Source: Eledone cirrhosa (lineage: Eukaryota). Taken from it: a stretch of DNA of 64,000 nt. The notes below the pieces were generated by a model. The model was not told the origin of the DNA, made no database searches, and saw only the letters and a program-made list of their open reading frames with translations. Below, in pieces: positions 15,281-58,937 of the stretch. The stretch lies in NCBI GenBank assembly GCA_964016885.1, contig OZ024741.1, forward strand, positions 86,304,001 to 86,368,000. Reading direction: 5' to 3'. Positions within the stretch are counted from its first letter, which is position 1. Every line of letters begins with the position of its first letter. Both the position numbers and the translations under genes were made by a program.

Positions 15281-18200
15281 TTGCTGCTTTCCTATATGAA
15301 AGTGAAAATATGTTTATATAAGAGGTTTTATAACTAATATGATGTATTTTATTTCCATCTTCAGCTGTATGAAGGTGTTGGATTCATGATTAAATGGTTG
15401 TGGGTTTGATTCCTGGTCTGAGCATCATATTGTGTTCTTGTGCAAAATGCTTTATTTCGTGTTGCTTTCCATGATAGAACCAAGACCCCTTATCATCCCA
15501 AAGAAACCTATGAGATACAACTTCATAAGTCAGCTAAACTTGCAGAGGAGAGAATTGTAAATGGAATTTTTTTTTATTTTTTTTTTTTATCTTCAGGTAT
15601 ATGTGACTTTGGTGCTATGAAAAGCAGTTGAAATTGCAGTCTTCATGATGAAAGTACAATCATAAATCAAATTTTTGGAGATACTTAATTCTACACTATG
15701 TATTTTGGTCTATTTCCTTGATAAGGCTATGCAAGTTGCCTCTCGTGGTTCTTTACCAATTATGGAAACTTCCTCTTATGTGAGTGGATAATTTTCTTTT
15801 TCATATTTTTTTTTAGCCATTCCTCTATTTTTTGTTTGTCCTTTCTTGATTGTGGTTTTTCTGTTTCAAGGTGAGATGCCATATAAACCGAGAATATTTT
15901 AGCTGGAATATCATCATCATCACTACCATCATCATCATCATTCATTTTATATCTGCTTTCCACACTGGCATGAGTTGGATAGGGTGTCACAGTCTGAGAC
16001 TAGACGGGTCAGAGAGACATCATCTTGCTCATGCATTCCATATTTGGCTTGATTTTAACAGCTGGATGTCCTTAACGCCAACCACCTTACAGAGTGTACT
16101 GGGTGCATTTTTGTCGTGGCACCAGCATTACCACTTTACAAAGTGGACTGGGTGCATTTTATTGTGGCACCAGCGCTAGACAAGTTGTCACATGAATGTG
16201 TAGATTGAACAGTCCTCTTAAACTTATATATATTCTCTCCATTTAATCGCTAAATACTGTAGCCTTGAATTTCACTGTTTACTTTTAGTATTGCAGTGTT
16301 TGTACTGGTGGACATTTTAAAATATATATTTAATGTAATTATAACTGATCAACCTACTTTGTCTGTTGCAGTAGTAACTACTACAGGTGTCACTTGCAAT
16401 TGAGTGTAACTTGGTAGTGTGTACCATGCTTTCTCTCAAGGTTTTAGGTGCTCATGCAGTCTTAAGCAGAATTAGAACATTCAGGATGCAACAGCAGAAA
16501 GGGGAGATGGCTGTATCGACACTGGGCAGGTAGTTTCTTTATTGACCCTAGAAGGATGAAAGGTGTGATTTGAACTCAGAGACCTATAAACAAATATCCA
16601 ACACTCTAACAACTCTGCCAAACCAACAATCTTTGTTGCAGTAGTACAACTGCATTATTTGAAAACATTTTCGTTAGTTTTCTTCCTTCATCACACAAAT
16701 GTGGCATTTCATTTTTATTTAACCCTTTTGATACCAAACCAGCTAAATCTGGTCCTGCTTCTATGATACAAAGCTGATAAATTTGAAGTGTTTCTATTTA
16801 TCTAAAACCTTTCCAACATAATTTTATGTAAGAACTTCTAAGTTATGTTCCAAACACCAGGTTTATAATGAAAAAGTAAGTTATATTATTAAATCCCTTT
16901 AAATTCTTGATGATTTTCAAAATTATTTGAAGATCACAGGCAGTGTCTTTCATTACAAATATGGTAAAAATACAAGTTAAATATTGACGATGATAAAGAT
17001 ATTGTAGATTTTAAATATATTTTTCTTTGTCATTACTAGATAGTATCATAGGGTACTGCAGTTCACATCTATTTTCAAGGTGTCAAGCAGTTGAGAAACA
17101 CTTTTCACTTTGCTTAGAGTACTAAGTTTATTGCTGGTTTTGTATGAGTTGATTTATACTCAGTAGTAGTTTTTGTCAAGCTACCAAATTCTTCTTAATG
17201 CACTCAACTCTTTTCTTTTTTTCACATCACCCTCCACCCAAAGTATACTAAATGTAGAGGACAAGATAAAGCCTGAGTATTTTATGTGTATGTAAAGGTA
17301 TTGATTACAAAATGGGTATTACATGTGGCAGAATGTTTTTTTTGTTATCTAGTTCAAGAAAGTGAGGAATTGCTTATTTGCTTGGAAAGCATTCCAGACT
17401 ATTCCAGGCTGATTTATGCTGATGTGGTTGATGAATCTAAAGCAATCCTTTCTTTTATTGTGGAGGACTTGATAGCAATGTAACTATCTGAACAGATGCA
17501 GCAATACAGTTGCAAGCAGGTTTTGGGGAGAAAGTCAAAAGTCTGTCCCCTCCCCAATTCATGTGATCTACAAACAATAGGAAAATATATAGATATTTGC
17601 ACAAAATAGTGTTGAGAATGCCAACATCAGAAAAGTTCTAAGTGGACAGTCAATTCAAAAACACTTTCCAGTGAGCATTCTGCAAGATTCGCATTATGCA
17701 GAGTGAAATGCTTTATAAATTGCTATAAAAGAAATATATATTTGCATATAATTTAATTTTATAAAATATTCTTGAGATTTACATGGTTTTCAATGTTATA
17801 TTTTATTTATCTGTGATTTTAATTTACCTATAAGGTGCTGGGCAAATTTTGATTAATTTTATTAATGGATCATTATTATGTATGCTTGTGTGTGTTTATG
17901 TATGTGTATGTTTGAATTTATTTGTTTTCTCCAAACATTTTGATCAATTCCAGTCTTTCATGTTATTTACCTTTATGATACAGCTATTTTATATACACTT
18001 AATTTTAGGTGAAAATCAGTTAATGTGCACAATTTTTCTATACTAGAATTCTATTATACATCCCAGCTGAATGCTGGTTAATAATTTGTTTTATATGGTG
18101 CTATTTTAACAGAATTAAAATAATTTTACTTAATTTACTCCTATTTACCCATAATTCGAGTAGTTCTGTGGTGGCAAAAGTTATGTAATATATTTAAAAC

Positions 18201-18683: not shown

Positions 18684-19421
18684 TTGATGATGTATGATGC
18701 GTGTATCCGAACAGCGATGTTGCATGGTAGTGAGACCTGGGCGCTGAAGGTGGAAGACTTACGTAGATTAGAGAGAAACGAAGCCTGCATGCTCCGATGG
18801 ATGTGTAACAGTAATATATGTGAACGACAAAGCATAAATGAATTGAGAGAGAGACTGAGCATAAGAGGAATCAAATGCTGTGTGCAGGAGAGGCGGTTGC
18901 GTTGATATGGACATGTGATGCGTATGAAGGATGACAGCTGCATAAAAAGGTGCAGAGCACTAGAAGTCGATGGAAACCGTGGAGTGGGGAGACCCAAGAT
19001 GACCTGGGATGAGGTGATAAAAGCCGACCTTACCCAATTACACCTCTCAAAGGCGATGACACACGACCGTGACCTCTGGCGTCACGCAGTAATACAGAGT
19101 ACCCGACCTCCCATGGGTACAAGCTGAAGCATATAGACAATATGCCCCCACACCCCCCACTGCAAGGTGGTCGTGGAGGTGCCACGGCAAAAAAGCACCC
19201 AGCCCACACTGTAAAGTGGACGTGTAGGCGCCACGAAAAAGCACCCAGCACTCACTGTAAATGAGGTTGGTGTTAGGAAGGGCATCCAGCTGTAGAAATC
19301 AAGCCAAATCAGTTCCTGTATGAGCAAGGCATGGTCAGCCGACCAGACACTGCCCACAACAGGACAACCCGTCTAACCCATGCTAGCGTGGAAGAACAGA
19401 CGTAAAACGGTGATGATGATA
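18684..19421 (+). mobile_element. RTE (BovB-like) LINE 3' portion with a repetitive 3' UTR and (GAT)n tail
   Basis: YDACIRTAMLHGSETWA, ERNEACMLRWMC, RRLR*YGHV and GRPKMTWDEV. The 3' UTR has repeated AAAAGCACCCAG.CAC(A)CTGTAAAGTGG units and ends CCATGCTAGCGTGGAA...GATGATGAT. Related tail-derived copies lie near 15910, 20225, 20930, 28780, 29360, 30970, 42380, 46900, 53300, 58980 and 59230. Confidence 0.85.
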
Positions 19422-19882: not shown

Positions 19883-20599
19883 GTAAGTTGATATATTTTA
19901 TTATTTTCTTTTAAGAAAGATATAAGAATATAATTATGATTGTGTAATTTTATTTAAAAGTCATTTGGAGTGTGTTGTGCTTTCCATAATTTTTGCAGGG
20001 TTTTTTCCAGCTAGATGCCCTACTTATCACCAACCACTTAACTGCAGACTGGATGCATTATTCATGCCACCAATACTAAGGAGGTTGTCTTACTGAACTC
20101 AGTCCTCTCCACCCTATGTCAGTTTTTATTTGGAGTGTCGACTCTCCAAGACGAGTTGCCTTCACTATGGCTTACGGAGGCCACGTCTGCCCCATAAATG
20201 TAGTTATACATACATTCATTATTATCATTACTGTTTTATGTCCATTTTCTATGCAAGCATGGGTTAGATAAGTTGTCACCTTCCAAGATTAGACATGGTC
20301 AGGCGACCATGTCTAATGTGTTCATTTGTTCTATTTTTGGCATGGTTTCTATGGCTGGGTACCTTTTTTTAACGCCAACCATTTTATAGTGTGTACCAAC
20401 ACTACCACTTTAATTAGTGGGCTGGCTGCATTTTATCATGGCACCATCACTACCACTTTTACATTTTATCATGGCACCATCACTACCACTTTTACATGTT
20501 ATCATGGCACCAGCATTAACACTTTCCAAATTAAAAAGTGAGCTTTATAATCCATTTAATCAAATGTGCACTCTGAAGACCTGCTTCATGTAGAATAAA

Positions 20600-20896
20600 T
20601 CAGTTTGATAGAACACACCTTACACCAAGCTATTAATTAGGTAGAACACACCTTACACCAAGCTATTAATTAGGTAGAACACACCTTACACCAAGCTATC
20701 AGTTTGGTAGAACACACCTTACACCAAGCTATCAGTTTGGTAGAACACACCATACACTAAGCTATCAGTTTGGTAGAACACACCTTACACCAAGCTATCA
20801 GTTTGGTAGAACACACCTTACACCAAGCTATCAGTTTGGTAGAACACGCCTTACAACAAGCTATCAGTTTGGTAGAACACACCCTACTCCAAGCTA
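20600..20896. repeat. 33-bp minisatellite, about 9 copies (GTAGAACACACCTTACACCAAGCTATCAGTTTG)
   Basis: Direct tandem units with no spacers. Confidence 0.95.
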
Positions 20897-22366
20897 CAAT
20901 AATAGGAGAATTTAAACTTGGCTCTACAAGCACCCAGTACACTCTATAAAATGGTAGTGGTGGTGTTACCAAAAAAGGCACCCAGTACACTCTGTAAAGT
21001 GGTTGGACTCAGAAAGGACATCTAGCCATAGAAACTATGCCAAATATGGAATATATGAGTATGATGAGGTCACTTCAACCCATCTGGTCTTGAAAAAATG
21101 ACAACCCATCCAACTCATGCCAGCATGGAAAGTGAATTTAAATTATTGATGATGACGATATTGCCACTGCTTTTAGCAATTTGTTGGTGCTTGTTTCTAG
21201 CTTAGAAGACAAGGTGATTTGGTCTGTGTCTTGGCTATAGATATAGCACTGCACTGATGACAGGATAAAGATTGCCAATCTTGTGATATGTTGGCTGGAT
21301 TCTTTGTAATGCTTTAAACCTTTTGGCAGCAAACTGCCTGAAACCAACTCTGGTTCTACAATACAAAATTGTTTTATAACACTTATTTATCTTAAAACCT
21401 TCCATTATAATTTTATGTAAGAACTTTTGTTATGTTCCAAACACCAGCTTAATTAAAAGTAAAAGGTTAGATTAATAAATTCCTTCAAATTCTTGATTAT
21501 TTTCAATGTGATTTGAAAATCATTGGCAATGTCTTTCATTAGAAATGATATGACAATGAAAGGGTTGACATTGCTAGTTACTGTTTTCAAAGGAATTTAT
21601 ATTTGAAGTCAATAGTTTCCTTTTGCATCAGTTTCGTTCATTTTGCCAGCTTTGACTATCAGATTATACATATGAATTCTAACTGTTAAGAATAATCCCT
21701 TGATAAATAATATACCTGCTGTTACTAAGAAGAAAATTACCTCGTTTAAAATGAAATTTACAGCTCACACCTATATGCAATTTTGGTCTCCTACGAAGTT
21801 GTATCTTATAGAAGATTTCTTAATGATAGAGGCTCCAATCTTGTCATAGAAATGAAGCATTTTACACAATGTACCGTCTTGTTCAGGAATCAAATCCACG
21901 ACCATATGATTGTGAGATAAACACCCTACTTGCCCTCACTACTTTATTGGAAATGTTGACAATTTATTTTTTATGAAATTGATGTTTTAGTTTTCTTCAA
22001 AATACCAAATAAATTCAATTATTACATCCTATTATGATTGAATAAAAAATATCAAAAAATCAGGTTTGTTAATTCAAATGTTTTTACTAGTGGACAGATT
22101 TTAAAAATTTTCAGTATTAGTGTAAAGACTTTAATATTTAATGTAATGTAGTTTCATGTGGTACAGGACATGAAGAATTAAAGAATGATAAAATACCAGT
22201 CATCTTATATTTTTAATTCATACAAATATTCAGCTTAACTTGTGTACAAACAGAAATGATGCCTGACTTATTTATATTCTTTATTGATAAGAAAAATTGC
22301 AGGTATGAGCTGTAAATTTAATTTTTTCATTTGCTTAGCCATTTATTCAACAAACAATCTAACAGG

Positions 22367-24253
22367 TCATCATCATCATATCTTGTCGCGCCAGGGCCGT
22401 ATCCATTGAAGTGCAGCGTCGTTTGCCGCAGGGGCACTCAGCGCAGGTGGCCATTCCCCACTTGTGGAGATTGTCTCCAGTTTTGCCGTTTTGGCTCTGT
22501 TTAGGGTTACCTAGTCCTTTCTGCTAAGAGATGTTCCATTGGGGAAGCTTTCATTTTGGCTTGGTAAGGCCGCGTTGGGTGGGCGGCGGTCACTCTCCTT
22601 CCACTTTTCCAACCTGTAAGCTGCCGATTGTGCATGCTCCAGGCTATCCACGGTTAAGAAGCTTTTTCGTGATTTTAATCGACTTCTTATTTCCTAGTGG
22701 CCATAGAGTGGATGCCTGGGATTGTGTTGTTTGTACTGTTCAGTTTTTGCGTTGACCTCTCGTCGTATGTGGGGCGGTGGAATGTCGGCAAGAGTGTATA
22801 CGGCTGGAAGGGGAGTTGCTTTTAATATTCCGGTGATCATCCGGCATGATTTGTTCAACTCTGGGTCAACTCTGTTTGCATGGCACGACCTTGCCCATAC
22901 TGGTGAAGAATATTCTGCGGTGGAGTAGCAGAGTGCCAGTGCTGTTTGCCTCAGTGTTGTGGGATCTGCACCCCAGCTGGTGTTGGTTAGTTTGCTGAGG
23001 AGATTATTTCTAGTTGCCAGTTTACTTTTAAGTTTGTCTATGTGTTGTTTGAAGGAGAGCGTTCTATCAAGGGCAACTTCGAGGTAAACTGGTTGAGGGT
23101 GGTTTTCCAGTTCATTGTTGCCCCATCTGATTTTTAGTTTCCTGTTTGCTTGGTGGTTGTTAAGATGGAAGGCACACACCTGCATTTTGCTGGCATTAGC
23201 GTTAAGGTACCATTTTTTGTAGTATGCTGAGAGATTTGTCAGGGCATTTGATAGTCTTTCCTCAATTGTGTCAAAGGAGCCTGACTGTGTTGCGATGCAG
23301 AGATCATTCGTATATATGGATCTACGAATATTGTGGAACTGCAGCTGGTCATTTGTGTAAATGTTGAACAGCATAGGGGCCAGCACAGAGCCCTGTGGGA
23401 GTCAGTTGTTCTGGACCCTCCACCTACTTTGCCTGCCATCCATCTCAACAAAGGATCGCCGATTGATGAGCAGTGACTCAATTATGCGGACTGCAGTGGT
23501 GTTCCGAACTGTTTGGGCCACCTGTAAAAGAAGTGCTCTGTGGTTCACGGTGTCATAGGCAGCTGTGAGGTTGACAAAGACTGCTCCAGTCATTTGTTTG
23601 GCCTCAAAACCTGACTCAATACATCCTCGATGTATTGAGTCAGGTTCAGTACTTGACCGCAGCATGATCAGCCGGGTCGGAAGCCAGTCTGGTCTGGAGA
23701 TAGTTGTTCTTCTACAATAGGGGGGACAAGCAAGCCATGATCATGCGCTCATATAGTTTGTAAAGGGTGCACAGTAAGGATATTGGTCGGTAGCTCTTTG
23801 GAGATGCCGGCTCTTTGCCTGGTTTCAAGAGAGCCACCACTCTAGCTCTTCTCCATATCCTTGATATTTGACAGGCTGATGTACAGTTGTTAAAGAGTGA
23901 CAGGAGCCACGTTTTCGCCATTTCTCCAAAGTGCAGTATCACCTCCACTGTGATGCCTTCCCGGGTTTAAGGTGTTTCATAGCTGCATGCAGCTCTTCCA
24001 TGTTAAATGGTTCAAAGTTTTCGTCAGAGTTGTGCATGGCACGGTTCATGTCCTGTTTCATTTCCCTTAGGTATCCCCTTTCTCTATTCTTGGGCTTACC
24101 GTTGAGTAGCAGTTGGTGTGCCACTTCGTTTGGGGTAACGGCAGCTATTCTTGGTTGTGGTTTCTTTTCAGGGCTTAATTTTTTGATGGTTGCCCAGGCG
24201 TTTTTGCTGTTATGAGTCATATCGGTGTTGGTTATGACTTCTTGCCAGCGCTC
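22367..24253 (-). mobile_element. 5'-truncated LINE of probable Ingi/Vingi-like (I group) type, with a (TGA)n tail; frameshifted
   Basis: SYRPISLLC, AVFVNLTAAYDTV, PQGSVLAPMLFNIYTND, YTND in place of YADD, LDRTLSF, WGADPTTLRQTALALCYSTAEY..PVW and PPHIRR. The clade assignment is from memory. Confidence 0.75.
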
Positions 24254-24565
24254 TAATATTGAAGTTTTAAAGATAATAAAATTTAAATGAACCATTAATT
24301 CTTAACATACTGTACCACATGGAACCACTAGCAAGCCATTCTTCAAAAATGTAAAACAGTATAGTGATTGCATCATATCAAAAGTTAATCTTTAGTTTAC
24401 TTCAGATTTTCACAACAATCTGTCCCCTAGTAAAGATACTATAAACATTTGAATTAATAAAGCTGTTAAGAATTAATTTTTTGTTTCTTTTGCTAAATTT
24501 TTCTTCTATTTTTGTTATTTTTCTTTCAACTTTAAAAAAACAAAAACATTTTTTTTACTCTCTAG

Positions 24566-28150: not shown

Positions 28151-30044
28151 TTGATATGAGATTCTGGTGAAGCATTTCTTGTAATTCCATGAATATGTAC
28201 AACTGCAATCTGAATTGCTTTTTAGAAAGTAGGGCTGGAAGTGTTGTGTTTTTGGTGTATCCAGAAGGAGCAGTTTCTTGAGAATTTCAGGAAGCTCTTG
28301 TATCGTTGAGAAATTAACTCTGCCTCCTGAGCATCACAAACCTATTGTTTCTGCAGGCCACTTCTTAGCACTGCAGTGTTGACAGCATTTCTTCGTTTTT
28401 CCAATAGTAATTTATTTTTTAAGGCGGTGGGTGTCATAGAGTATAACACCAATCAACCAATACATATTTCTTGTGGTTTATATGCTGTTTAGGCTAGAAA
28501 ATGATGCAGCTTGAACCACATTTTTTCCTAATTTTTTGCTGTTCCTTAATTTTGTTGTTCATTTGCAATAACAGTCTTTTGTTTCCATCCAAACAGTATT
28601 GCCTTTCTATTATATTGTGCTATAGCAGTTTGAATTCTGTTATCAGTTACATTGGCCTTCAATTTCTTTAGATTGCTGTATTTTCTTTTTCATGGCCTCT
28701 GAAGAGAACCTTCTATATTATGTTCTCCTTCAACATTTTACTTACCATATGATGCCTGTATGAGAAGTGCACTGTTTCATGATAGTGAGACATGGGCAAT
28801 TAATTCAGAAGATATGTGAGGCCTGGACAGGAATGAATCAAGCATGCACCAATGAATGTGTAATGTTAGTGTGCATGAAAGATGCAGCACAGAGGAGCTG
28901 AGAGAAGTCTCAGCATAAGAGGAATCATGTTGCATGCAGGAAAGAGCATTGTACTGGTATAGACATGTGACGTATGTGGATGACCTGGGATGAAGTGGTG
29001 AGAGCTGATCTCAAATTACTGAATTGCTCAGAGGAGATAATAAAGGAATGGAACAAGTGGAAGGAAACTGTGCTGGAAAAGTCCTGTCCAACCCATGCAA
29101 ACATAGAAAGATGGATGTAAAATAGTGATGATAATAGCAATCATCATCACCACCACCTCTGAAAGTGAATTCATTATAAAATATATTGAGCTTTCATTCA
29201 GTAAGGTTTTTGCAATAAACTGTTTATTGTAATATGCATGTACTTAGTTTGTTTTCACCATACGTACATTTTTCACAATCCAGAGACCAGGGGCTACAGT
29301 GCTTGGTGATCAAACGGAGACAGTATAGGGTTTGAAAGCTTCTTTTGTCTGGCTGAGCATGCGACACAACCCTCTAGTGCTGGTGACATGATAAAAGGCA
29401 TCTAGTACACCCTTTAAAGTATAGTGTAGCTTCCACAATAAAATGCACCCAGTCCACTCTATATAGTGGTAGTGTTGGTGCCACAATAATTGCACTCAAT
29501 ACATTCTGTAAGATGGTTGAGACTAGAAAGTGCATCCAGCTATAGAAGCTATGCTAAACATGGAATGTATGAGCATGACAAGGTTGCTTTGACCTGTCTG
29601 GTCTTGAACTGAGACAACCTGTCCAACCTATACCAGCATACTGGGCATAAACTGATGATGATTATGGTGAAGTGGCATCAATTTAGGTAAAGTTATTTAA
29701 GCAGTAATAAAAATCTACAATGGCGATAGTCTGGTGATGTCAGGATCTTGCTGGTTTCTTTCTTGTTCGGCCAAGCAACCTAGATGTTAGCACAGATATT
29801 ACAAATGCATTGTAGGATATTGTTTTATTGTAAGAGGAAAGTCTGGACTTTTATATGTTTTTAAATATATAGTTCTTTTTGCTCAGAGAGCCTGTATTAG
29901 AACATTTTCATCAAATTTGCAAGTATGTGTGTGTATGCAAAACTTCCTAACCAGCTTTCTACCTTGCCTTGTCACTCATTAACCTCGAAATTTGTTTTTA
30001 TTTATGCTTGTAAATGTTTATGTAATTATATAATGTATTTAGTA

Positions 30045-30280
30045 AAAGCTCCTGACTTAGTGGTTAGGGAGTTGGACTCATGATCATAAGGTTGTTGGTT
30101 TGATTCTTGGACTGGACAGCACATTGTATTCTTGAGCAAGACACTTCATTTCATATTGCTGTTCATGATAGGACTGGGGCTCCTATTATTAAAACACCCA
30201 TGAAACCTTGTATGAGATATAACCTCACAGGAGGCCAGCTAATTCTCCACAGGTGTGAGCTGTAAATTTCATTTCATTCT
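30045..30280 (+). repeat. tRNA-derived SINE; same family at about 5340-5555, 15375-15560, 30537-30730, 41898-42015 and 63790-64000
   Basis: A-box-like TAGTGGTTAGG and B-box-like GTTTGATTC, with the shared body TTCTTGAGCAAGACACTTCATTTCA. Confidence 0.6.
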
Positions 30281-30320
30281 TTTTTCATTTCATTATATGA
30301 TATTTAATTATTTATTGTAG

Positions 30321-30508
30321 TGCTTTCTCAGTTGAATCTTGTGGAACAATTGGAAGCGGTTGCCAGGCAAGTTGGACTAAGTTTTACTCCGCCCAGTGGC
30401 CCTGAATCACAGCTCTTTGTTGGTTCTGACATGTTCTATATTCAAGTTGCAATGGACAAGAGTGGCATGGCTAAGGATGTTAAGATAGCACATCAGGGAG
30501 AACCAAAA
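30321..30508 (+). CDS. MED1: MED1 exon (188 nt): VLSQLNLVEQLEAVARQVGL...SDMFYIQVAMDKSGMAKDVKIAHQGEPK
   Basis: ttattgtag| and |gtaagt; LE-x-x-ARQ-x-GL, SDMFY and DVK-x-AH-x-GE motifs. Confidence 0.95.
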
Positions 30509-31544
30509 GTAAGTTTATTTCTTATTTTTTTCCTTGTGAAGGCATGTAGCCTTGTGATTAGGGTCTTGGACTCACAACTATAAGATCATGGATTTGATTC
30601 ATGGACCAAGCTGTGCATTATGTTCTTGAGTATGACACTTCATTTCATGTTAGGATCAGGACATCATTATTAAAACTCCCCAAAAAATTTCTATGAGATA
30701 CAAACCTCATAGGAAACCAGCTAAACCCCTCCTATCTCTCCAATTAGAAGTTGACAGAACTATGAAATTTTAATTTCTTTTGTAGTTTTTAGTTTCTTTA
30801 TTGCAAATAATCAGAAAGTTTTTGCAGATTACATCAACAAACACCAGGAAAAAAAAATCTGAATAAAAAATATTAATAGTTAAAATCGTGCAAATTAATA
30901 AGGAAGCACTTGTTACATTCATGTGATCTTTACAAATATGTATAAACTTAACACTTTATGGAATGTATGAGGGCCGAGATCTCTGGCGTTATGCAGTAAT
31001 ATAGAAAACACAACCTCCCCTGTGCACAGGTTGAAGCATACATCGAGTATTCACCTCCCACGCCCAACCACCCAACCCTCACCCACATCCCTAGATCTAC
31101 CTCCCCAACCCAAGTCTCCAGCCCATACTATAAAGTGGTCGTTTTGGTGCCACAACAAAAAACGTCCAGCTCACACTGTAAAGTGGTCCTGTCGGTGTCA
31201 CGGCAAAAAGCACCCAGCTCACACTGTAAAGTGGTTGTGTGGATGTCATGGCAAAACGTACCCAGTACACACTTTAAATGTGGTTGGCATTAGGAAGGGC
31301 ATCCAGTAGAAACCAAACCGGAATCAGTTCTGTATGAGCAAGACATGGTCACCTGATTTGACTTGTCTCACAACGGGACAACTTATTTAACCCATGCTGT
31401 TGTGGAAAAATGGATGTTAAACAGTGATGATGATGATGATATACATATTGTTTTAAGATATATTCCTTTTGTTCATAGCAAGACTGAATTCTTTAACATA
31501 CAATGGCTTCACTATATAAGTAGATACAGAGATAGTATTATGCA

Positions 31545-31614
31545 TGACATTTGTACATTTTCTATGTACTATACATACACCTTTGATGAGTTGTAGTGCC
31601 CCTGAGCACTGTAC
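31545..31614 (+). mobile_element. 3'-terminal 70 bp of the CR1 family at 38267-40367, lacking its last ~9 nt and tail
   Basis: Close match to 40272-40342 (..TATGTACTATACATACAC.TTTGATGAGTTGTAGTGC.CCTGAGCACTGTAC). Confidence 0.85.
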
Positions 31615-33484
31615 CGTTTTCAGGGGTTGGATCGCTGCGATGTACAGCGACATCTGCTCAGTTGTGAGGGTGAATGGTCACCTGTCGCAGCCGTTCGGCA
31701 TCATGCACTCGGTCCACCAGGGTCGTCCTCTCTCGTCCGTCTTGTACGTATTCGCTCTCAAGCCGTTACTGTACAAACTGGGGGCGATGAGGGGCATCCC
31801 ACGCGAACTAGGATGCGGGAAATCCGAGTCGGCTTACGCCGACAACGTCACCGTGGTGGTGTCTAGCACCAGACACGTCCAGATGCTCGGCACCACTCTC
31901 AAGGAATACGAAGCGGTGACAGGAGCATAGATAAACCAGGAAAAGTCGGTAGGCTTGCAGCTCGGCACCTGGAGAGGCAAGCCCATGCCGCCCGACAGCG
32001 TCGTGGGGCGTTTGACGGGGGACCGGTTAAATTGTTCAGGGTCTGGTTCGGACCGGACTTCCAGATGGAGAAAAACTGGAGTGAGGTGACGAGCAAGGTG
32101 GCCTCCCTCACCCAGAAATGGGCCGAGAGGAAGCTGTCCCTGAAAGGCCGGGTGGAAGTGGCGAATGTGTACTTTGCATCCGTCATCTGCTACTGCCTCA
32201 CCATCATCCCTTGCCCCGGCCCAACTCTCACCAAAATGGAGCGCCTCCTCTTCCGCTTTTTAAAGGGACGCGCTCCCATGGTCAGATGATCCATCTGCTG
32301 TCAACACCAGTTGGGTGGAGGACTGGGCATGCCATGGCTGAAGATGCGCAAACATGCGCTGAGGCTGCGACATCTCTGGTGCTTCCTTGACGGTGAACAG
32401 GTGTGGTCGCCGTTCGCCAGGCACGTTTTCCCACAGCTCGTCTCCTTGACAGAGCTGCAGTCCTGGGTCAGGAAAATACCGAGGGATAGCGCTTGGAAAC
32501 TGGAATGTCTCCAGGCGCTCACTGCCCTCTGCCAGCTGGGCACCAGTATCAGTGGAACATCCACCTAGGCATTCTATAGAGGACTAGTGGAGGGGAAGAG
32601 CGACGACGTTCTCGGAGAGATCCTGGGCGTCGAAGAAGATCAGCTGTTTGCTCTCTTCCGGAGAACTTTCAGCCCAGGGCCTATGGATAACTTCCAAAAA
32701 TCCCTGGTCTGGCAGTGCTACTGGGGAGCGTTGCCGGTTCGAGATAAGCCCTACAGGCACGGAAGTGCCGTCAGCCGAGATGCGCGCAGAGCGACGAAAC
32801 CGTCGTGCACGCACTCGTTCAGTGCCCGAGCATTGCTGACTTGTTGAGCTATGTCGAACAGTTGCTGTTGAGTGTAGGACTGATCCAGTTATTGACTGAG
32901 TCCATTGTGCAGATGGTCTCGCCGTCTTCCTTCGAGGAGGAAGGGCAGGCGGTTTTCATCTGCCTGGTGGTCATGGCGAAAGAGATTGTGTGGTGGACAA
33001 AGTTGAAAGGGTTAAAGACAGACACTTTCCTCTTTGGCGAATCCCAATTAACTTTTTCAAGTTTCACTTGAAGAGGAAAATCAGGGTGGAGAGGGAAGTG
33101 CTGCCTTCTAGCAAGTTTGTTGAAAGATGGGTGAATGTAGCGAGAATAGTCCGAGTGAACGGGACCGCTCTGAATATACGCCTGTAGTTTGAGAAATGGA
33201 AAAATTGAGAGAGGGCGCTTGCCCTGGTGGTCAGGGTGGTCGTGGTCTTTTGTGTGGTTTTCGCCACGAGTCACCCTCGGAGGTTTCCCCCCTATTGCAG
33301 AATTTTTCATTGTTTCAATTTTCATTTTTATTGTTTATATATATATATATATATATGTTTCTGTCTTTTTTTTTCTTTTCTTATATAAATAATAAAAATC
33401 CTTACATGCACAAAACCCACATCGTACCGTCCTGTGCCGTCTGTAATGTTTTTCTTGATGTCAGCCCTTGTGGCCAATAAAGAA
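31615..33484 (+). mobile_element. Tx1/L1-clade LINE, copy A: 5'-truncated within RT; frameshifts and stops
   Basis: GWIAAMYS, QGRPLS, SAYADN, WFGPD, LSLKGR and LGMPWL. The 3' UTR ends AATAAAGAA, followed by (ATT)9. Confidence 0.92.
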
Positions 33485-33511
33485 ATTATTATTATTATTA
33501 TTATTATTATT

Positions 33512-33720
33512 CTTTGAGTCTCAGTCATTGATGTTAGTTAACTGGAAAGTTTGTTGAAATGAATATCAAGCCACTACCTGCAGCCTCAGATATTCAGGAC
33601 GTATCGGAGGGTTCTTGCTGTTCCCAGCAAGCATGCCTTTTGAAGCGTTCCAAAAAGCGTGGCAGGGCCAATTTTCTTTAACCATCCCTGGAAACTTTTT
33701 GAGATAGTACCTAGTGCGCC
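33512..33720 (-). mobile_element. 5'-truncated Dong/R4-clade (restriction-like endonuclease) non-LTR element inserted in (TAA)n
   Basis: The minus strand reads GALGTISKSFQGWLKKIGPATLFGTLQKACLLGTARTLRYVLNI* (33720-33586), then a ~75-nt 3' UTR; TAA repeats lie on both sides. Missed by the ORF track. Confidence 0.8.
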
Positions 33721-33739
33721 TATTATTATAATTATTATT

Positions 33740-36700
33740 CAACGACCTCCGGTCGCTGGAAATGGATGTGATTGCCGTAAGCGAGACCAGAATTTCCGAC
33801 GCGCGCACTAGCCCCCATTTTCGACGACTATCGGATCTTCACATCTGTTAGCAGGCCGGGAATGGGGGGTGGGGTGGCAGTGCTGTTTAGGAAAGGACTG
33901 GATCTCGAGGTAAGGTCGATCTTCCGGGACCCGGACGGTAAGTTGGTGGTCTTGGATGTGAGCAGTAGCGAAGGTGGTGCCTTTAGACTGCTGGCCGTCT
34001 ACGCCCCTACAGGGGCCGGATGACCTGACTTCTTTAGGCGCCTGGAGACCTTTCTGGGTACGTCTCGCCCTTTACTGTTAGCGGGGGACTGGAATGGCAT
34101 CTTAGACGCACGCTGGGATTGTGTGAGAGTAGCCGATAGGAGCGGGGGGTGCAAAAGCCTCAAGCACCTACTCAGCCAGTTCCAACTGTCTGACAGGTAT
34201 CGACTAGATTTCCCCAATGTGCAAGTATACATGGACCAACCGAATGGGGTCATCTAGATCGTATATAGACAGAATCTTCATTAGGAAAATAGATAGAAAT
34301 AGTGTGGGCTGTCCACTTTTTAAAACGGTCGCCTATTCAGATCACAAATTTGTGATCTGTACGGTCGACCTAAATAAAACGCGTAGGTTAGGACCGGGTT
34401 ACTGGAAGCTGAACATGTCATTTCCGGCACGTAAGGCTTACAGGGACCGAGTCAACAAGTTAGTTAAGCAAAAGTTGACAGGGGGGATCATCAACAACAG
34501 ATGGTGGGGGGGCTCTCAAAAGAGAGATTAGAGTAACTTCGATAGAGTTCAGCAAAGAACTAGCGTTATAGAAAGGAGGGGGAGCTGGTAGATAAGTTAG
34601 ACGAGGCTATTTGTAGTGGCATCGCAACTGACGTGTAGCGGCGAGAATGGCATTAGACCATTTCTTCAATGCCAAACACGAAGGTTGCATTGTCAGAGCT
34701 AAGGCACGTGCGCTGAGAAACGAGGGAGCTAAAGCTGTTCAATGGACCCGTGTGTCGGAGGCGCAGCGTCGTAATAAAACCACAATTCGGTCTTTGGCGG
34801 ACCGAGACGGATACGAGATAAGCGATTCCAAGCGGATGTGTGAGGCCTTTCGCCAGCACTTTGTTCGGTTGTTCAGGGAGAGTGGCGAGTCAGAGAGAGA
34901 ATAGCGGATTTCAGTCCCTACCTTGACGGCTTGCCGCGTATCTCGACGGTCGACGCTGAGCGCTGCGAAAGGCCGATTACTTCAGCCAAAATTCAGGACG
35001 CCCTTGTCGGCTGCATGAGGCGCAAGTCACCCGGTTTGGATGGCCTGCCCTACGAGCTTTACGTAAATATGCCAGACTTGTTCTCCGAACTCCTTGAAGC
35101 ACTCTACTGTAACTGGCAGCAGAATGGGAGTATTCCCAGTTCTGTGAGCAGGGGAGTGGTGACGCTGATAAGGAAAGACGAGAACAAGAGGGATACATTA
35201 GACAACTTCAGGCCCATAACTCTGCTCAACACAGAGTTTAAAATTTTGGCCAAGGTGTTAGCAAAGAGATTGGCGCTTGTTGTCGAGGATTTGGTTGGGG
35301 AGGCGCAAACTTGCGCAATCCCAGCCAGATCCATACACGACAATCTCCACCTCATGCGATACATCATAGAGAGGGTAGGGTGTAAACCTGGCTTCGGTGG
35401 GGCACTGATCAATCGAAAGCATTCGATAGGGTCGACCATCGGTATCTGGAGTTTGTCCTCAAAGCAGCTGGCTTCAGCCCTGTCTTTAGAAGCTGGATCG
35501 TTGCAATGCACAGCGGCACACGCTCGGTGGTCAAGGTTAATGGCCACCTCTCGGAACCATTTTGGCTCTCCCGATCGGTCCGTCAAGGGTGCCCTCTCTC
35601 TTCCCTTCTGTACGTATTGACTCTCGAGCCTTTACTGCGGAAGCTGGAGCTGTTGCAGGGCATCCCGCTCGAACTGGGACGTGGAAAGGCGGTGTCGGCT
35701 TATGCGGACGACATCACCGTGATGGTGTCGAACACCTCAGAAATCGAGGTGGTCGACACCTTATTGAAGGAATATGAAAGGTTGACAGGAGCCAAACTTA
35801 ACCCGGAAAAGTCGGTGAGCTTGCAGCTCGGAACCTGGAGAGGCAAGCCCATGCCGTCCAACAGCGTCGTGGGGCGCTGGACGGACGGACCAGTAAAGTT
35901 GCTCGGGGTTTGGTTCGGACCAGACCTCCAGGTGGAAAAGAATTGGGACGAGGTAACGAGCAGAGTAGCCAGTCTCACCCAAATATGGGCTGGGAGGAAA
36001 CTATCACTGAAAGGTGGCGAATGCGTACATCGCGTCCGTCATCTACTACCGCCTAACCGTTGTGCCTTGCCCCCGTCCGCGCCTCGTCAAGTTGGAACGG
36101 CTCCTCTTCAAATTCTTGTGGAGGAGACAAGTTCCGTTGGTGAGGCGGTCCATCTGCTGCCAGCACCCTCTACACAGAGGGCTGGGCATGCCGTGGCTAA
36201 TGATGGGCAGACATGCGTTGAGGCTGCGACATCTCCAGATATTCTGCCTCAATGGTGAACAGGTGTGGTCGCCGTTTATCAGACGGGCCTTTCCGCAGCT
36301 CATTTCTTTGACTGAGCTGCAGTCCTGGGTCAAGAAGAGACCGAGACTGGGTGACTGGCACCTGGAATGTTGCCAGGCACTCACTGCCCTCTACCAAGCG
36401 GGCAATGCGATCAGTGGAACTTCCACTCTCGAGTTCTATAGAGGATTAGTGGTGGGCAAGTGCGATGACGCACTCGGAGAAGCTTTGGGCCTTGACGAAG
36501 TCGAACTGACCAGTCTGTACCGGAAGACTTTTGAGCCGGGGACGATGGACAATTTCCAGAAATCCCTCGCTTGGCAGTGCTACCGGGGGGCACTGCCGGT
36601 TCGGGATAAAATCTACAGGCACGGAAGTGCTGTCAGACGGACCTGCCCAAGATGCGCACAGAATGACGAAACCGTTCTGCACGCACTTGTCCAATGTCCG

Positions 36701-37324
36701 TGCATTACTGACTTGTGGAGTTATGTCGAACAGCTACTGTCGCGTGTGGAACGAATCCGGCTATCGGCCGAGTCCATAGGGAAGATCGAGCCGCCACCTT
36801 CCTTAGGTCAGGAAGAGCAGGACATTTTCCTCTGTCTGGTGGCAGTTGCGAAAGAGATTATATGGTGGACCAGGTTGAAAGGACTAAAGACAGACACTTT
36901 TCTCTTCGGCCAATCCCTCATCAACTTCTTCAATTTTCACCTGGAAAGGAGGGTGAGGGTGGAGAGAGAAGTGCTGCCCCCCAGTACATTTGCTAAAAGG
37001 TGGTTGAATGTGGTGAGAATGGCTCGTGTGAATGGGCCTACTCTGACCATGCGCCTATAGGCTGGCTAACTTGAGGAGAGGGGTGCTCTCCTGGGTGCCC
37101 TAGAAGCGCAGGGTGGTTCAGGATTGGTGGGGTACCCGAATCACCCCAGGGTTGTCCACCCCCTATCGGGGAATTTATTTTGTTATATTTATGCATAGTT
37201 TATTTTATATTTTTATATTTTCATTGTTAAATTAGTCTTGCCATTGTGCACTTTTACTCGACCTTATTGTAAACCCCCACTGTCCCTGTCTTTGTATTGT
37301 CCCCTTGTGGCTAATAAATGAAAT
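33740..37324 (+). mobile_element. Tx1/L1-clade LINE, copy B: nearly complete ORF2 with several frameshifts and stops
   Basis: Begins NDLRSLEMDVIAVSETRI, then AGDWN, SYIDR, YSDH, KSPGLDG, FRPITLLN, RQGCPLS, AYADDIT and CPRC..ETVLHALVQC. Ends AATAAATGAAAT followed by C(ATT)9. Confidence 0.93.
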
Positions 37325-38266
37325 CATTATTATTATTATTATTATTATTATTACTTTCATTAGTTTTATGACAGTTTTGAAAGTGTGTGGTCGAGTTGGG
37401 TTAGGGTATTGGATTAAGGTTTTAAGTTCAATTTCTTGACTCATTGGCACGCTGTGTTTTTGGAATGTATGTAGTTGCATATATATACAAATTAATGTAT
37501 GTGTCAACATATACACACAGACTAATGTATGTAGCTACATATATGCACTGACTAAGATATGTAGCTGCATATATGCACAGACTGATGCATGTAACTGCAT
37601 ATATATATAGAGAAATTGAGAACATATCAGAGATTTGCCATTTTTGTTGTTTTTCATTTTATTTTTTTCATTTTATTAAAATCTGGCACAACAAAAGATT
37701 TATATGTAATTACCATTATTCTAGAAGTTGTTTTATAACGATATAAATAATACAATGGTGAGTACTTTAAAAAATTTGAAGTTTTCCACTATATTTATCA
37801 GTGTATTAAGATTGCTTAATCCTTTTAATACGGAACTGTCCATTTATTTAAATTAAAATCTTCCAACATAATTTTATATAAAAACATTTATTAAGTTACT
37901 ATCATTAGAAATATCACAAAAGAGTTGAAGCAATGTAAAGTTAATCGCTTACTCTATTCCACTCTTATTTTCATTCGCTCACTTTTTCTTTGCCAGTCAG
38001 TACAGGGTTATAAACACCTCATCCTTCCTTGTTTGTTGTCTGCTTGGCTGTCTCCAACTTCTTCACTGTGACAGTAAACAAAAGCTCTAAGCTCATTATT
38101 ATATGTGATGAATTTACATTGTATTTATTTGTATCATTCAACAGTGATGACAATATATGACTGAATGAATTGTTACAAGAGTCAGAGAAACATTAAGAGA
38201 TTTCAAAATAAAATTGTTCTAAATTGTAGCTATGCCCATAAATGATTTGTTTCCTTCATCTAGTAT

Positions 38267-40367
38267 GGATAGCGTGTGCAGCATCAGTGCCACGTAAGCA
38301 GGAAAAAAAAACCTACCCCAAAAGTGCAATTTGGGAAACTTCAGCGGTCCAACTTGCCAGGAAAGAACGTTGGAACGCTGAACGGGAACATAAACTGCAT
38401 AAATCAGATGCCAACAGAAAAAAGCGGAATAAATCTTCTAACCATCTCAAGCAAGTGACAAAGAAGGCAGTGCTTGAATTTGAACAGTGCATAGCAACCA
38501 ATCCTGACAGTAAGGTGTTCTGGAAATATGTTCATTCAAAGCAGAGACCTCACTCTCCAGTTGGTCCTCTTCGCAATCCCCACACAAGCCAGGTCACTGA
38601 CGATCCCAAAGAATGCGCAGAACTCATTGCTGAGTGCTATGCAAGTATTTTTACTGTCAAAAACCAGAATGTACCATCTCCACCATCTCTAACATCAAAT
38701 TCCATAACAACTATGGCATTTACACCTGCAATGCTGCGACGTCACGTTAAGAATAAGCGCAACTATGCCTCCCCTGGTCTTGATGGTGTTACATACCTGC
38801 TTCTCAAACGTGGCGGGTATTTCCTTTTGCGCCAGCTTTCTTTCTTCTTTCAATACTGTCTCAACAATGGTGCTACTCCGGAGCAGTGGAAAACTGCCAG
38901 TGTCATTCCCCTGTTCAAAAAGGGCAATCGTATGTCACCTGTCAACTATCGTCCAGTCAGTCTTACTAGCTGTATGGCCAAACTGATGGAATCCTGTGTC
39001 AGAGAAACACTTTGGGACTTCTGGAGCTCTCACACCGGCCCTCACAGTTTGGATTTATCCCTAACTCCAGCTGCTGTGATCAGCTTATCGAGTTCCTTGA
39101 AGACATCACCCGGATCACTGACAGCAGCTCATGGGTGGATGTTGTTTACCTTGACTTTGCTAGGACTTTTAATTATGTGCCACACAAAAGACTTATGGCA
39201 AAACTCTCTGCAATGAGTGTGAGGGATGATCTTTTCGACTGGTTGAAATCCTTCATTCTCAGCCGAAAAGAGGTAGTCACGGTACTAGGAGAGCATTCTT
39301 CACCATATGAGATGTCATCTGGTGTACCACAGAGATCTGTTCTTGGTCCCGTTTTGTTTGTGGCATATATTAATGACATAGATGCCAACTTACAGAATGC
39401 CACGGTACTGAAATATGCAGATGACATCAAGCTGGACCTTGAAATCAAAACGACTGATCCTGAAATCTACAACTCTTTCCTACAATCAGACCTGGACACA
39501 ATGCAGCAAGGGATCACAGACTGGCAACTGAAGCTGGCTGTGGATAAGTGTACCACCATGCATTTTGGGAGGAAAAATCCAGTGTCCACATACTCCCTCC
39601 ACAACACTGATATCAAGAAGTCCTCTTGTGAACGTGACCTGGGCATTACTGTCAGCAGCGATTTGCGTTGGACAAAGCACATCTCTAAGATTGTCAAGAA
39701 GGCTGAGGGTGTCTTGGCATCACTCAGCAAGACCTTTGTTAGCCGCTCTCCAGCCATCTATTTAAAACTGTATACAGCTATGGTACGACCACACTTTGAA
39801 TTCGCATCATCAGTCTGGAACCCCTATCTTGCTCAGAACATTGACCGCCTGGAAACTGTTCAGAGATGTGCAACCAAGCGCATACCCTCCATCAGACACC
39901 TACCATACGCTGAACGCCTTGCTTCCCTGGGCATGGATTCATTGAAGCTCCGACGTCTGGCAATGGACTTGGTGAAAACCCACAAAGTTATTAACCATTT
40001 CGCCAACAACAACCCTGAGCACCTTTTTTATCTCCATGTGTTTAACACACATGGACATGCCTACAAAATCAGAAAACAGCACAGCTCCCATGGCTTTCGT
40101 AAACATTTTTTCACGCTCGGAGTTGCTGAAGCATGGAACAAACTGCCTGCGTCAGTTGTTAGCTGCCGAGACACTCATGCTTCCTGAAATACGCCAAAAC
40201 TACACCTGATGTACCCCTTCCATACACATGGACACATGTGTATATCATGACTCATGCACTGTTCATTTTCCTGACATTTGTGCATTACCCTATGTACTAT
40301 ACATACACTTTTGATGAGTTGTAGTGCACCTGAGCACTGTACACAATATTTCATTATTATTATTATA
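38267..40367 (+). mobile_element. CR1-clade LINE: 5'-truncated ORF2 with one frameshift near 39030; (ATT)n tail
   Basis: SPGLDG, PLFKKG, NYRPVSLTS, QFGF, YLDF, GVPQRSVLGP, YADD, ERDLG and HFFT..VAEAWNKLP. Candidate TSD TAGTAT at 38261-38266 and 40368-40373. Confidence 0.92.
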
Positions 40368-40417
40368 TAGTATTTTCTACTCACTGTTCTAAATTAAATT
40401 TATTATTTTACTTTCAG

Positions 40418-40446
40418 AGCTGTCAAGACCTTCAAGATGTTCTCAG
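40418..40446 (+). CDS. MED1: MED1 29-nt micro-exon: SCQDLQDVL(S)
   Basis: ttttactttcag| and AG|gtaaa; needed to bridge phase 0 to phase 2; resembles 'SCPELVQQL'. Confidence 0.88.
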
Positions 40447-42596: not shown

Positions 42597-42995
42597 TAAC
42601 ACTAGAGCACATGTGTCAACATCAGAGCAAGCGTTGTGTCAGCACTAGAGCAAGCGTTGTCAGCACTAGAGCACTTGTTGTGTCAACACTAGGGCACTTG
42701 TTGTGTAAACACTAGGGCACTTGTTGTGTCAACACTAGGGCACTTGTTGTGTCAACACTAGAACACTTATTGTGTCAACACTATAACACTTATTGTGTCA
42801 ACACTATAACACTTATTGTGTCAACACTATAACACTTTTAGTGTCAACACTATAACACTTATAGTGTCAACACTAGAGCACTTGTGTCAACACTAGAGCA
42901 CTTATGTCAACACTAGAGCACTTGTTATGTCAACACTAGAGCACTTGTTGTGTCAACACTAGAGCACTTGTTGTGTCAATATAAGAGCACTTGTC
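42597..42995. repeat. ~23-bp minisatellite (GTGTCAACACTAGAGCACTTGTT), about 17 variant copies
   Basis: Direct tandem units; the variants AGAGC, AGGGC and ATAAC occur in blocks. Confidence 0.92.
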
Positions 42996-51968: not shown

Positions 51969-53904
51969 TTTTCCTCTATATCTCTTTCTCATTTCCTCTC
52001 TCTCTCTCTCTCACTTTTTCCTTCTCTTGGAGAAATCTGCAGTATTCAGACATGGGCTCTACCAGGATTTAAAATGCCCTAGAAACGCTGTATGTCAATA
52101 TGGTTCCCCATTGACTCCCTCGTTCACTGTACTGGTGTAGTATTTTGTAAAGAGTCAAATGTTAGAAGCTTAATATAAAATAAAATCCTTTCATGTGGGT
52201 CTGATGATACTTTAATTTTCATCTTTCTGATCTTAGAGGGATCTATGAAATACAGGCTGTTCAGACAAGCCATTTTAGCCAAAGATTTTGCTACAATTAA
52301 AAGCAATAGGGTAAGTAGTTGGTTGGCAGAATTGTTAGAGCATCAGGCAAAATGCCTTGTGGCATTCCGTTACAGTGCTTTACACTCTTTGTTCAAATCC
52401 TGCTCAGGTCAACTTTGCCATACATCCTTCCTAGAGTCAATAAAACAAAATGCCAGTCAAATATTGGGGCCTTATGTCTAAATTAGAAAGCACAATTAAA
52501 AGCAAGATCATGATTTCTTTGTTATACATATAAACAACTTAAAATTTTAATTTATTGGATGGAAATTATCATACAGTAGTTTTTAAGCTATGTTGTTTTG
52601 TTGAATATGCTGCTACATTATTTTCTGTAACGATTCATCCAAGGCGTCCATATTATCCAGTATTTAATTATTTCAAAGAAATGAAATGAAGATATTCTTC
52701 TTTGTTGTATTCATCATATGTCCTCCCTAATACCAACCACATAACTGAATGTATTTTATAGTGGTACCAGCAGTAGTAACATTGTCAATTATTGATTTGA
52801 CTGAAGAGCTCTCTCTGCTCTATGGGGAGAAGGTTAGAAAGCAGTCTTGTCTGAAGAGAGCTGTATTTACAGAGTGAGGGCAGAAATAAATAGAGTGGCA
52901 AGTATGACGATGTGGGGTGGGGTGGCATAAGCGACAGAAAGATAAGTGTAATGTGATGTGAGTATGACAAGTGTGAAGATATTCTTTTATAATATTTTAC
53001 TGGTAATATGATACATAGTAAAATGAGCCCATCCATCACCTTGATTATATCATTTTCTGTGGTAACAGCTACCAAGTAAGCTATTCAGTATCATAGAAAT
53101 AGTCTCATTCTCATAATAAGAAAATTATTTATCAGCATGTTGATCATTAATAGTTGTTTAGTTTAATTATGAAAGATTTATTAGAAACAGATCTGCCATT
53201 GATTAAAATATTTTGGGCCAAGGCTTATTTTCGCAAGAAGCAGTTACATCATAACCCCTTTGAAACCATAATCTGATATTTTGCAGATCTATCCAGTTCA
53301 TCATCATCATCATTATAAATCTGCTTTCCATATTGGTATTGTTTGGTTGGGTTGTCATGGTCCAAGACCAGACAGGTTGGAGCGACCTCATCTCGTTCTT
53401 GTATTCCATGTTTGGTATGGTTTTTACAGCTTGATCTCCTTCCTAATGCCAACCACCTTACAGGGGTACTGAGTACATTTTTTGTGGCACCAGCACTATC
53501 CCTTTACAGAATGTACCTCATGTATTTTATTGTGGTACCAATACTAACACTTTACAGGGTGTACTGGGTGCATTTTGTTGAGGTACCAGTCACATGTTCG
53601 TTTAGACTGAAGGTCCTCTCAAATCTTATGTTGTCTTCATTCGATCACCAACATTGGTGTCTCACATTTACTTTCAGTGATATTTTGGTTGTAATTGGGC
53701 AGCTCTTTTGACATTCTGTCATCTATCCTATTTCTTCAAGTAGTTGGCTTTAGTCATACATATAACTGGCATTGGACAGGCCACCATCTGAGTGTCTGAA
53801 ATTGACTTTGTGAATATTACTGGATTAAAAGATACTCTGCAAGACAGCAGTTTTGAACAAGCAATTGTAGATATTGAAATAAAGATTGACATCATCATCT
53901 TCTT

Positions 53905-58925: not shown

Positions 58926-58937
58926 GTGGGTGTGGCG

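Follow-up and report, generated by a model that had tools for sequence, protein, structure and literature searches.

Four LINE insertions of three kinds stacked on one ATT-repeat spot in a MED1 intron of Eledone cirrhosa

The stack and its host intron

Here, we analyse a stack of retrotransposons in an intron of the gene MED1 of the octopod Eledone cirrhosa. The window, i.e., the whole stretch of DNA analysed, comprises 64,000 nucleotides (nt) of assembly GCA_964016885.1 (contig OZ024741.1, positions 86,304,001 to 86,368,000, forward strand). It is AT-rich animal DNA with zero N, and all coordinates given below refer to it. The stack and its surroundings comprise the following features:

30332-30508, plus strand: MED1 coding exon, upstream of the host intron (Pfam Med1, E 1.5e-6; PDB MED1 chains, E 5e-8; AG before, GT after)
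31533-31542, plus strand: left copy of the candidate CR1 target-site duplication, TAGTATTATG (9/10 to 37361-37370), adjoining the CR1 piece
31543-31614, plus strand: 3' untranslated region (UTR) fragment of a CR1-like long interspersed nuclear element (LINE), 91.5% over 71 bp to 40272-40342
31615-33484, plus strand: Tx1-A, 5'-truncated LINE of the L1/Tx1 group, from mid-reverse transcriptase (RT) to the 3' end, with 3 stops and 3 frameshifts (RVT_1; 72% amino acid identity to the intact relative P0061)
33485-33511, plus strand: (ATT)9, 3' junction of Tx1-A, tail and target of the Dong-like piece
33512-33720, minus strand: 3' end of a Dong/R4-like LINE of the restriction-like endonuclease (RLE) type, consisting of the last 44 codons, the stop and a 74-nt 3' UTR (59 matches)
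33721-33739, plus strand: ATT tract of six units with one substitution, 5' junction of the Dong-like piece and left target copy of Tx1-B
33740-37324, plus strand: Tx1-B, LINE of the L1/Tx1 group cut near the start of the second open reading frame (ORF2), with 1 stop and 8 frameshifts (RVT_1, zf-RVT; 76% amino acid identity to P0061)
37325-37353, plus strand: C(ATT)9A, right target copy of Tx1-B and probably the displaced CR1 tail, starting with CATTATT, as do the CR1 tail at 40352 and the Tx1-D duplication
37354-37360, plus strand: CTTTCAT, repeating the CR1 terminal motif (8-mer TTTCATTA at 37355 and 40349)
37361-37370, plus strand: right copy of the candidate CR1 target-site duplication, TAGTTTTATG (9/10 match), 7 nt beyond the last tract
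38254-40364, plus strand: separate 5'-truncated CR1-like LINE, its 3' end intact with an (ATT)4 tail, uninvaded, used as reference copy (RVT_1; 60% amino acid identity to P0178)
40418-40446, plus strand: presumed following MED1 exon, 29 nt, bordered by AG and GT and in phase with the exon upstream

The host intron spans 30509-40417 (9,909 bp). Its downstream exon is too short for a family search, and its identity is taken from splice sites and phase. From left to right, the stack reads as a 72-bp CR1 3' end, Tx1-A (1,870 bp), (ATT)9, a Dong-like piece of 209 bp on the minus strand, (ATT)6, Tx1-B (3,585 bp) and C(ATT)9, and it is confirmed as a genuine pile of four elements of three kinds on one ATT-repeat spot. 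This is in good agreement with an earlier note on this DNA, which had placed four elements and three tracts at these positions, with ATT at every junction but the first, where CTGTAC (31614) is directly followed by Tx1-A. Two boundaries shift slightly: the CR1 piece probably begins at 31543 rather than 31545, and the unit enclosed by the direct repeat ends at 37360, a small correction to the earlier 37353. The estimate that about 5.8 kb were added to one MED1 intron also holds, as the stack accounts for 5,818 of 9,909 bp (59%). Once the separate CR1-like element at 38254-40364 is added, the LINE share of the intron is 80%.

The CR1 piece, Tx1-A, Tx1-B and the independent copy Tx1-D (see below) all lie sense to MED1. 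The motif AATAAA occurs at 33476, 37313 and 61582, i.e., at all three Tx1 3' ends, on the sense strand of the host transcript. A comparison of the outer flanks of the stack with other repeat families gave no clear match. No sign of a function for MED1 was seen, and the stack most likely represents neutral filling of the intron. Taken as a single locus, it illustrates known principles clearly.

The Tx1-like elements

Two further Tx1-like copies are present in the window:

1-4485, minus strand: Tx1-C, related element with remains of ORF1, 3' end beyond the window, boundary approximate (Exo_endo_phos, RVT_1, zf-RVT, weak zf-CCHC)
61156-61602, plus strand: Tx1-D (61166-61592) with its duplications, independent control (74% amino acid identity to P0061)

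The names Tx1 and Dong are used as labels of likeness: no named Tx1, Dong or R4 references were returned among the protein homologs, and membership in the named clades is putative. LINEs of the L1/Tx1 group carry an apurinic/apyrimidinic endonuclease (APE), an RT and a C-terminal zinc finger in ORF2. All three were found in Tx1-C, and RVT_1 and zf-RVT in Tx1-B, which also aligns to the APE region of P0063. The best solved relative of Tx1-C is LINE-1 ORF2 (E 1e-34, vs. 1e-15 for R2). A quick tree of 18 rows groups copies A, B and C with P0061 and an Argonauta protein in a single clade (support 100); the closest named relative of the Tx1-like proteins comes from Argonauta hians (60% identity). 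An ORF1 zinc knuckle marks the Tx1 clade. The zf-CCHC match in ORF1 of Tx1-C (E 0.07) is below the curated cut-off, and A, B and D have no ORF1. The 3' ends of A, B and D exhibit a common motif finishing AATAAA-GAAA.

In a self-comparison of the window, Tx1-A and Tx1-B are 74% identical over 1,578 bp, with differences of 24% at first, 21% at second and 40% at third codon positions. As they differ mostly at third positions, they represent separate subfamilies or masters; a local duplication of A into B is ruled out by the 74% identity together with the third-position bias.

The longest copy is Tx1-C, which retains parts of ORF1 and a near-complete ORF2 interrupted by 1 stop and 4 frameshifts. 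Its 5' end adjoins an old, presumably RTE-like RT fragment on the plus strand, and no ATT is found there. The element may have used another target, or may have lost its 5' duplication. The Tx1 copies carry several deletions of 8-19 nt (34568, 35413, 36014, 32775, 1275 and 250), some of them between short direct repeats. Microhomology-mediated repair is suggested as a main route of LINE decay here.

ATT as target of the Tx1-like lineage

ATT runs of at least three units occur six times in the window, and three of them, including the two longest, lie in the stack. Each of the three Tx1 3' ends that the window includes reaches ATTATT within 2 nt, compared with an ATTATT-type hexamer within 2 nt at 547 of 83,471 random AT-rich sites (0.7%). 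Tx1-A and Tx1-B share one site, and thus the three ends represent two independent sites only. At the 5' side, two of the four Tx1 ends adjoin ATT, those of A and C being the ones without.

Whether ATT is target or tail can be read from Tx1-D. This copy has a perfect target duplication of 10 bp, CATTATTAAG, starting at 61156 and 61593 (15 of 4000 null draws were as good), which begins with CATTATT and has no ATT units beyond it. A perfect duplication without additional units marks ATT as the target at D, and the use of ATT sites by this Tx1-like lineage, as claimed in the earlier note, is thereby supported.

The 12-mer TATTTCATTATT occurs twice in the 64 kb, at the intact CR1 3' end and at the target of D, with 0.06 occurrences expected from dinucleotide content; this coincidence was spotted post hoc. 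Since the 12-mer is common to both, the CR1 end looks like a ready-made site. The flank of D is unrelated to CR1, so that CR1 is not required. That D sits on a decayed CR1 end was considered and ruled out, as 384 of 1000 random windows align equally well to the CR1 end. A search within the window with nine relatives and five terminal probes found no further Dong or CR1 copies, and four Tx1 copies only, which keeps the local statistics at n = 2 to 4.

The Dong-like piece

The 44 amino acids of the Dong-like piece gave 59 matches with 52-77% identity, including full-length RT proteins of 1,127-1,158 amino acids. Four full-length relatives (P0012, P0013, P0022 and P0053) comprise an RT, a CCHC finger and a PD..D restriction-like nuclease region. 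Dong/R4 elements are recognised by a single ORF in which the RT is followed by CCHC and RLE domains; this arrangement was found in the relatives, while the copy in the window retains the last 44 amino acids. Among solved structures, R2 is nearest to the one full-length Dong-like relative compared. Dong/R4 elements, unlike R2, have no N-terminal zinc fingers; among Pfam matches, no N-terminal zinc finger was present in any of the four relatives.

The piece, the one copy of its kind in the window, has (TAA)n tracts on both sides (33485-33511 and 33721-33739). The Dong clade is inferred from the relatives and the target, with 209 bp present and the RT absent from the window copy. In line with this, the earlier note's view of a TAA-targeting Dong element on the opposite strand agrees with a Dong-like piece inside a (TAA)n tract, the published Dong target. 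In 50 of the 59 relatives, Ile directly precedes GALG, the point at which the piece is truncated, and the ATA of the tract at 33721-33739 may therefore have served as 5' microhomology.

The CR1 piece and the enclosing repeat

The ORF of the reference copy (38254-40364) finds its named matches in stork (bird) and turtle proteins at 35-38% identity, which are CR1 proteins, though their records do not name CR1. Its relative P0178 carries Exo_endo_phos and RVT_1 and no zf-RVT, which fits CR1 as a LINE with an APE-RT ORF2 lacking a C-terminal zinc finger. The CR1 piece of the stack shows 6 mismatches to this copy in 70 aligned bases (divergence 8.6%, confidence interval 3-18%). It stops at CTGTAC, 9 nt before the tail of the intact copy, and Tx1-A begins at 31615 with no ATT tract between. 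A 5-bp terminal hairpin is kept in both CR1 copies; the folding of the two 3' ends is not significant (z -1.0 and -0.65). The earlier note had stated that the CR1 family normally ends in an (ATT)n tail: one intact copy with (ATT)4 does so, and both the word "normally" and the terminal short tandem repeat of CR1 come from this copy (n=1).

A direct repeat of 9/10 surrounds the whole stack and was equalled by 94 of 4000 random AT-rich flanks. The CR1 terminal 8-mer TTTCATTA has 21 copies in the window on both strands, one of them directly after the last tract. Together, the enclosing repeat and the 8-mer past the last tract suggest that the CR1 insertion encloses the rest. With the 12-mer common to the CR1 end and the target of D, they make the CR1 3' end the most likely source of the landing site.

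The intact-ended CR1 copy, in sense direction, leaves approximately 50 nt between its end and the 3' splice site of the following MED1 exon. Its tail is followed by TAGTAT, which also opens the candidate duplication of the stack and has 33 copies in the window; a site preference of CR1 is possible.

Order and ages of the insertions

The insertion order CR1, A, B and then Dong is likely, and the evidence fits it without proving it. The earlier note had proposed ordering by divergence. We measured decay as changes at residues that are invariant in eight distant intact relatives and one close one. By this measure, A is more decayed than B: 18 of 102 such residues are changed in A, 7 in B and 11 in C (A vs. 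B, p 0.03), and with the other close relative the numbers are 20, 7 and 13 of 99 (A vs. B, p 0.012). With a more distant reference, the numbers are 20 vs. 6 of 102 for A and B. This suggests a decay of approximately 6-9% for A and 2-3% for B, both being upper bounds. With a rate of 0.0036 per million years, quoted in PMC13282606, these bounds correspond to roughly 17-26 million years for A and 5-9 million years for B. In the intact CR1 copy, 9 of 105 invariant residues are changed, and the divergence of the CR1 piece (8.6%) is compatible with an age equal to that of A. None of the 19 invariant residues in the Dong-like piece is changed.

Stops taken alone give p 0.10 (3 in 521 codons of A vs. 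1 in approximately 1,100 of B). Frameshifts do not separate A from B (3 in 1,570 bp vs. 8 in 3,320 bp, p 1.0), and the CpG content of the common region is alike (0.79 vs. 0.78), so that the order of A and B is read from substitutions only. The reference P0061 is slightly nearer to B than to A and may bias the decay test, and with 0 of 19 residues changed the age of the Dong-like piece is bounded rather than fixed.

A model of stack formation and its alternatives

With a probability of about 0.6, we hold that successive target-primed insertions at one self-renewing ATT site built the stack. In a first step, a very short, 5'-truncated CR1-like LINE would have inserted with a 10-bp target duplication, leaving a TTTC(ATT)n end. 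The CR1 element and the repeat are observed; that they came first is inferred. In a second step, this end would have resembled the site of an octopod L1/Tx1 lineage that nicks at or beside the C of TTT-CATTATT, a position shown for copy D and presumed for the stack. Tx1-A would have inserted at the CR1 end, with loss of the last 8-9 nt of CR1 and transfer of the tail to the 3' side of A. The loss is most simply explained as target-site truncation; since several Tx1 lesions are deletions of 8-19 nt, a later deletion could also account for it. In a third step, Tx1-B, a member of another subfamily, would later have entered the 3' junction of A and doubled the tract, an order suggested by the decay of the two copies. 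Finally, the Dong-like element would have inserted into the tract that separates A from B, on the opposite strand, where the target reads (TAA)n, and added its own tail; it was cut short, probably at the ATA microhomology. As each insertion keeps or lengthens the target, the site stays attractive, and B and Dong would have landed on a tract duplicated by Tx1.

This regeneration of the pad by each insertion after the first hit had been overlooked in the earlier note, which saw CR1 (ATT)n tails as landing pads. What is supported of that proposal is that CR1 came first and that its 3' end is the most likely site. What is not supported is that CR1 tails are the usual pads: the other two-ended Tx1 copy lies at a non-CR1 site, and the intact CR1 tail and two ATT runs are empty. 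CR1 is thus one source of a seed, not a required one.

Besides the equivocal order, a number of points weigh against the model. The enclosing repeat is moderately significant only, was picked after inspection and is itself ATT-like. For the intact CR1 copy, a candidate target duplication (8/9) was dropped as not significant, since 1035 of 4000 null draws did as well; it may also be part of the element itself. The 5' junction of Tx1-C is without ATT. The 3' junction of Tx1-A is without the C present at B and D, which the model can accommodate only by a substitution or a different register. Invasion is not the rule, since the intact CR1 tail, which lies 3 kb from the stack in the same intron, is uninvaded, as are two other ATT runs. 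The evidence base comprises one stack and one independent control.

Of the alternatives, the one that survives best, though unlikely, also places CR1 first. Here, CR1 gave only a short TTTCAT end, which Tx1-A split between 31614 and 37354, and the tracts then arose from the Dong tail and from read-through or slippage of Tx1. The CR1 terminal 8-mer at 37355 directly before the right repeat copy, the 3-base TAC at both edges of the inserted block, and the knowledge of a CR1 tail from one copy only agree with it. However, it requires a 6-nt difference from the intact CR1 end as well as a Tx1 nick several bases off the register of copy D, and since the only ATT of D is that of its duplication, it is not obvious that Tx1 would supply a tail itself.

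It is slightly less probable that an ordinary genomic ATT microsatellite was there first, with CR1 as its first visitor contributing little. The candidate duplication does include TATTAT, plain genomic CATTATT sufficed at copy D, and two ATT runs (56113 and 58165) are unrelated to these LINEs. Yet the left repeat copy has an ATT-type hexamer only, and the long tracts all lie within the enclosing repeat and start in the register of the CR1 tail at 37325.

A little more improbable again is a chimeric origin, in which the Tx1 reverse transcriptase switched to CR1 RNA and the product inserted at an ATT tract already present, such that the CR1 piece and Tx1-A are one insertion. Both lie on the same strand and abut with approximately 1 nt of overlap and no ATT between, their ages overlap, and the left flank matches an ATT tract at 8/9; template switching is discussed for Tx1-mobilised SINEU (PMC4494074). 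But the match of the left flank lacks significance (423 of 4000) and the enclosing repeat is better (94 of 4000), the point of entry into the CR1 RNA would lie inside its 3' end by 9 nt plus the tail, and the CR1 terminal motif at 37355 is left as a coincidence.

Finally, a misassembly that joined unrelated repeat copies via ATT tracts is hardly credible: three junctions are simple repeats, but the tracts are just 19-29 bp, the elements are diverged rather than near-identical, the outer flanks bear the matching repeat, the junction registers agree with the independent copy D, and the window has zero N with MED1 exons in phase on either side.

Relation to known systems

Several Tx1 families target microsatellites and transposons, e.g., Kibi (TC)n, Koshi (TTC)n and crocodilian Tx1 (TTCC/TTTC)n (PMC4494074, PMC3812793). 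Like these, the elements described here are LINEs of the L1/Tx1 group with APE, RT and zinc finger that insert at a simple repeat with a target duplication. Unlike these, the octopod target is ATT/CATTATT, observed at two independent sites, and two ATT units are enough at copy D. Tx1 families have been counted as target-specific when one target accounts for more than 20% of their flanks (PMC4494074); measured by this, three of three 3' ends and two of four 5' ends lie at ATT with one clean 10-bp duplication, from few copies. The reported target of Dong is (TAA)n, as known from insects, molluscs and cnidarians (PMC7998251, PMC3812793, PMC3774820), and our RLE-type 3' end with (TAA)n on both sides shows no difference from Dong/R4 over its 209 bp. 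Dong-R4, CR1 and L1-Tx1 are all listed as recently active in Octopus vulgaris (PMC13282606).

Elements that make target duplications preserve their target and form tandems, as argued for Drosophila dimers (bioRxiv 10.1101/158386). Tandem SINEU-3 copies sandwich such a duplication, and target-site truncation is known for Tx1-mobilised elements (PMC4494074). The stack resembles double-insertion dimers and SINEU-3 in its tail-to-truncated-head tandems with a target copy between: A starts mid-RT, B near the ORF2 start, and an ATT tract lies between these two different subfamilies. Whereas the known cases are mostly of the same family, the stack mixes two Tx1 subfamilies, a Dong-like element and CR1 on one site. 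SaTar arrays in guayule and rice are likewise non-nested, linear arrays of unrelated elements joined by microsatellites (PMC5907723). SaTars are, however, non-autonomous MULE (Mutator-like element) DNA transposons with a proposed recombination route, and the stack consists of LINEs, with a LINE tail as a possible seed. Tandem Alu inserts are common (PMC3415434), and retrotransposon tails are a source of microsatellites (PMC3812793). As in Alu clusters, the 3' end or target duplication of an older element is the target of later insertions (PMC3812793, PMC3415434); there, a poly(A) tail serves one enzyme, L1 ORF2, whereas here two unrelated endonuclease types would act on the trinucleotide tail of a third clade.

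Tandem insertion that regenerates its target is thus already published, as is microsatellite targeting by Tx1 and Dong elements. An ATT-preferring Tx1-like lineage in octopods and a CR1 end as the first site may be new, each on one or two events: our literature searches found neither an ATT-targeting Tx1 nor a CR1-seeded cross-clade pile, which speaks only weakly for their absence, as bracketed repeat notation is unsearchable and Repbase or octopus libraries may record the target. If the ATT preference holds genome-wide, it represents a new target for the Tx1 group, whose endonucleases are a model of sequence-specificity evolution. If the model is true, two unrelated nucleases, APE and restriction-like, use one microsatellite from opposite strands. 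A general succession of three LINE clades in octopods, in which CR1 TTTC(ATT)n ends seed ATT-specific Tx1 and Dong and piles recur genome-wide with measurable intron growth, appears doubtful; such a CR1-seeded cross-clade chain would explain local LINE hot spots and large octopus introns by a simple mechanism that can be tested.

Neighbouring repeats

An abundant SINE-like family (SINE, short interspersed nuclear element) with 48-bp internal repeats and an (ATC/GAT)n tail is found at 31118-31441, 15924-16178, 19150-19420 and 20928-21158, with further copies at 29375-29666, 53298-54070 and 58981-59734. One copy ends approximately 100 bp left of the stack. ATC/GAT makes up 18 trinucleotide runs in the window, none of which was seen to hold a LINE. 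A second SINE-like family has an end of ATTTC repeats like the CR1 terminal motif (30060-30295, 30554-30724, 5347-5561, 15374-15580 and 21749-21928). A CR1-type LINE may mobilise this family, of which a decayed copy may begin near 37385.

The window further contains an RT-bearing LINE fragment (RVT_1) at 22694-24301 on the minus strand and an ORF at 58625-59140 that is interrupted by (TA)n and a SINE and presumably resembles the C-terminus of a mariner-type transposase. Minisatellites at 20429-20896 and 42612-42994 comprise 33-bp units (approximately 3 and 9 copies, matching at 93%) and a 23-bp unit (17 copies, 90%). An inverted-repeat element of 250 bp (55873-56125), 75% self-complementary, lies among long (TA)n tracts and carries the (ATT)3 run at 56113 in its right arm.

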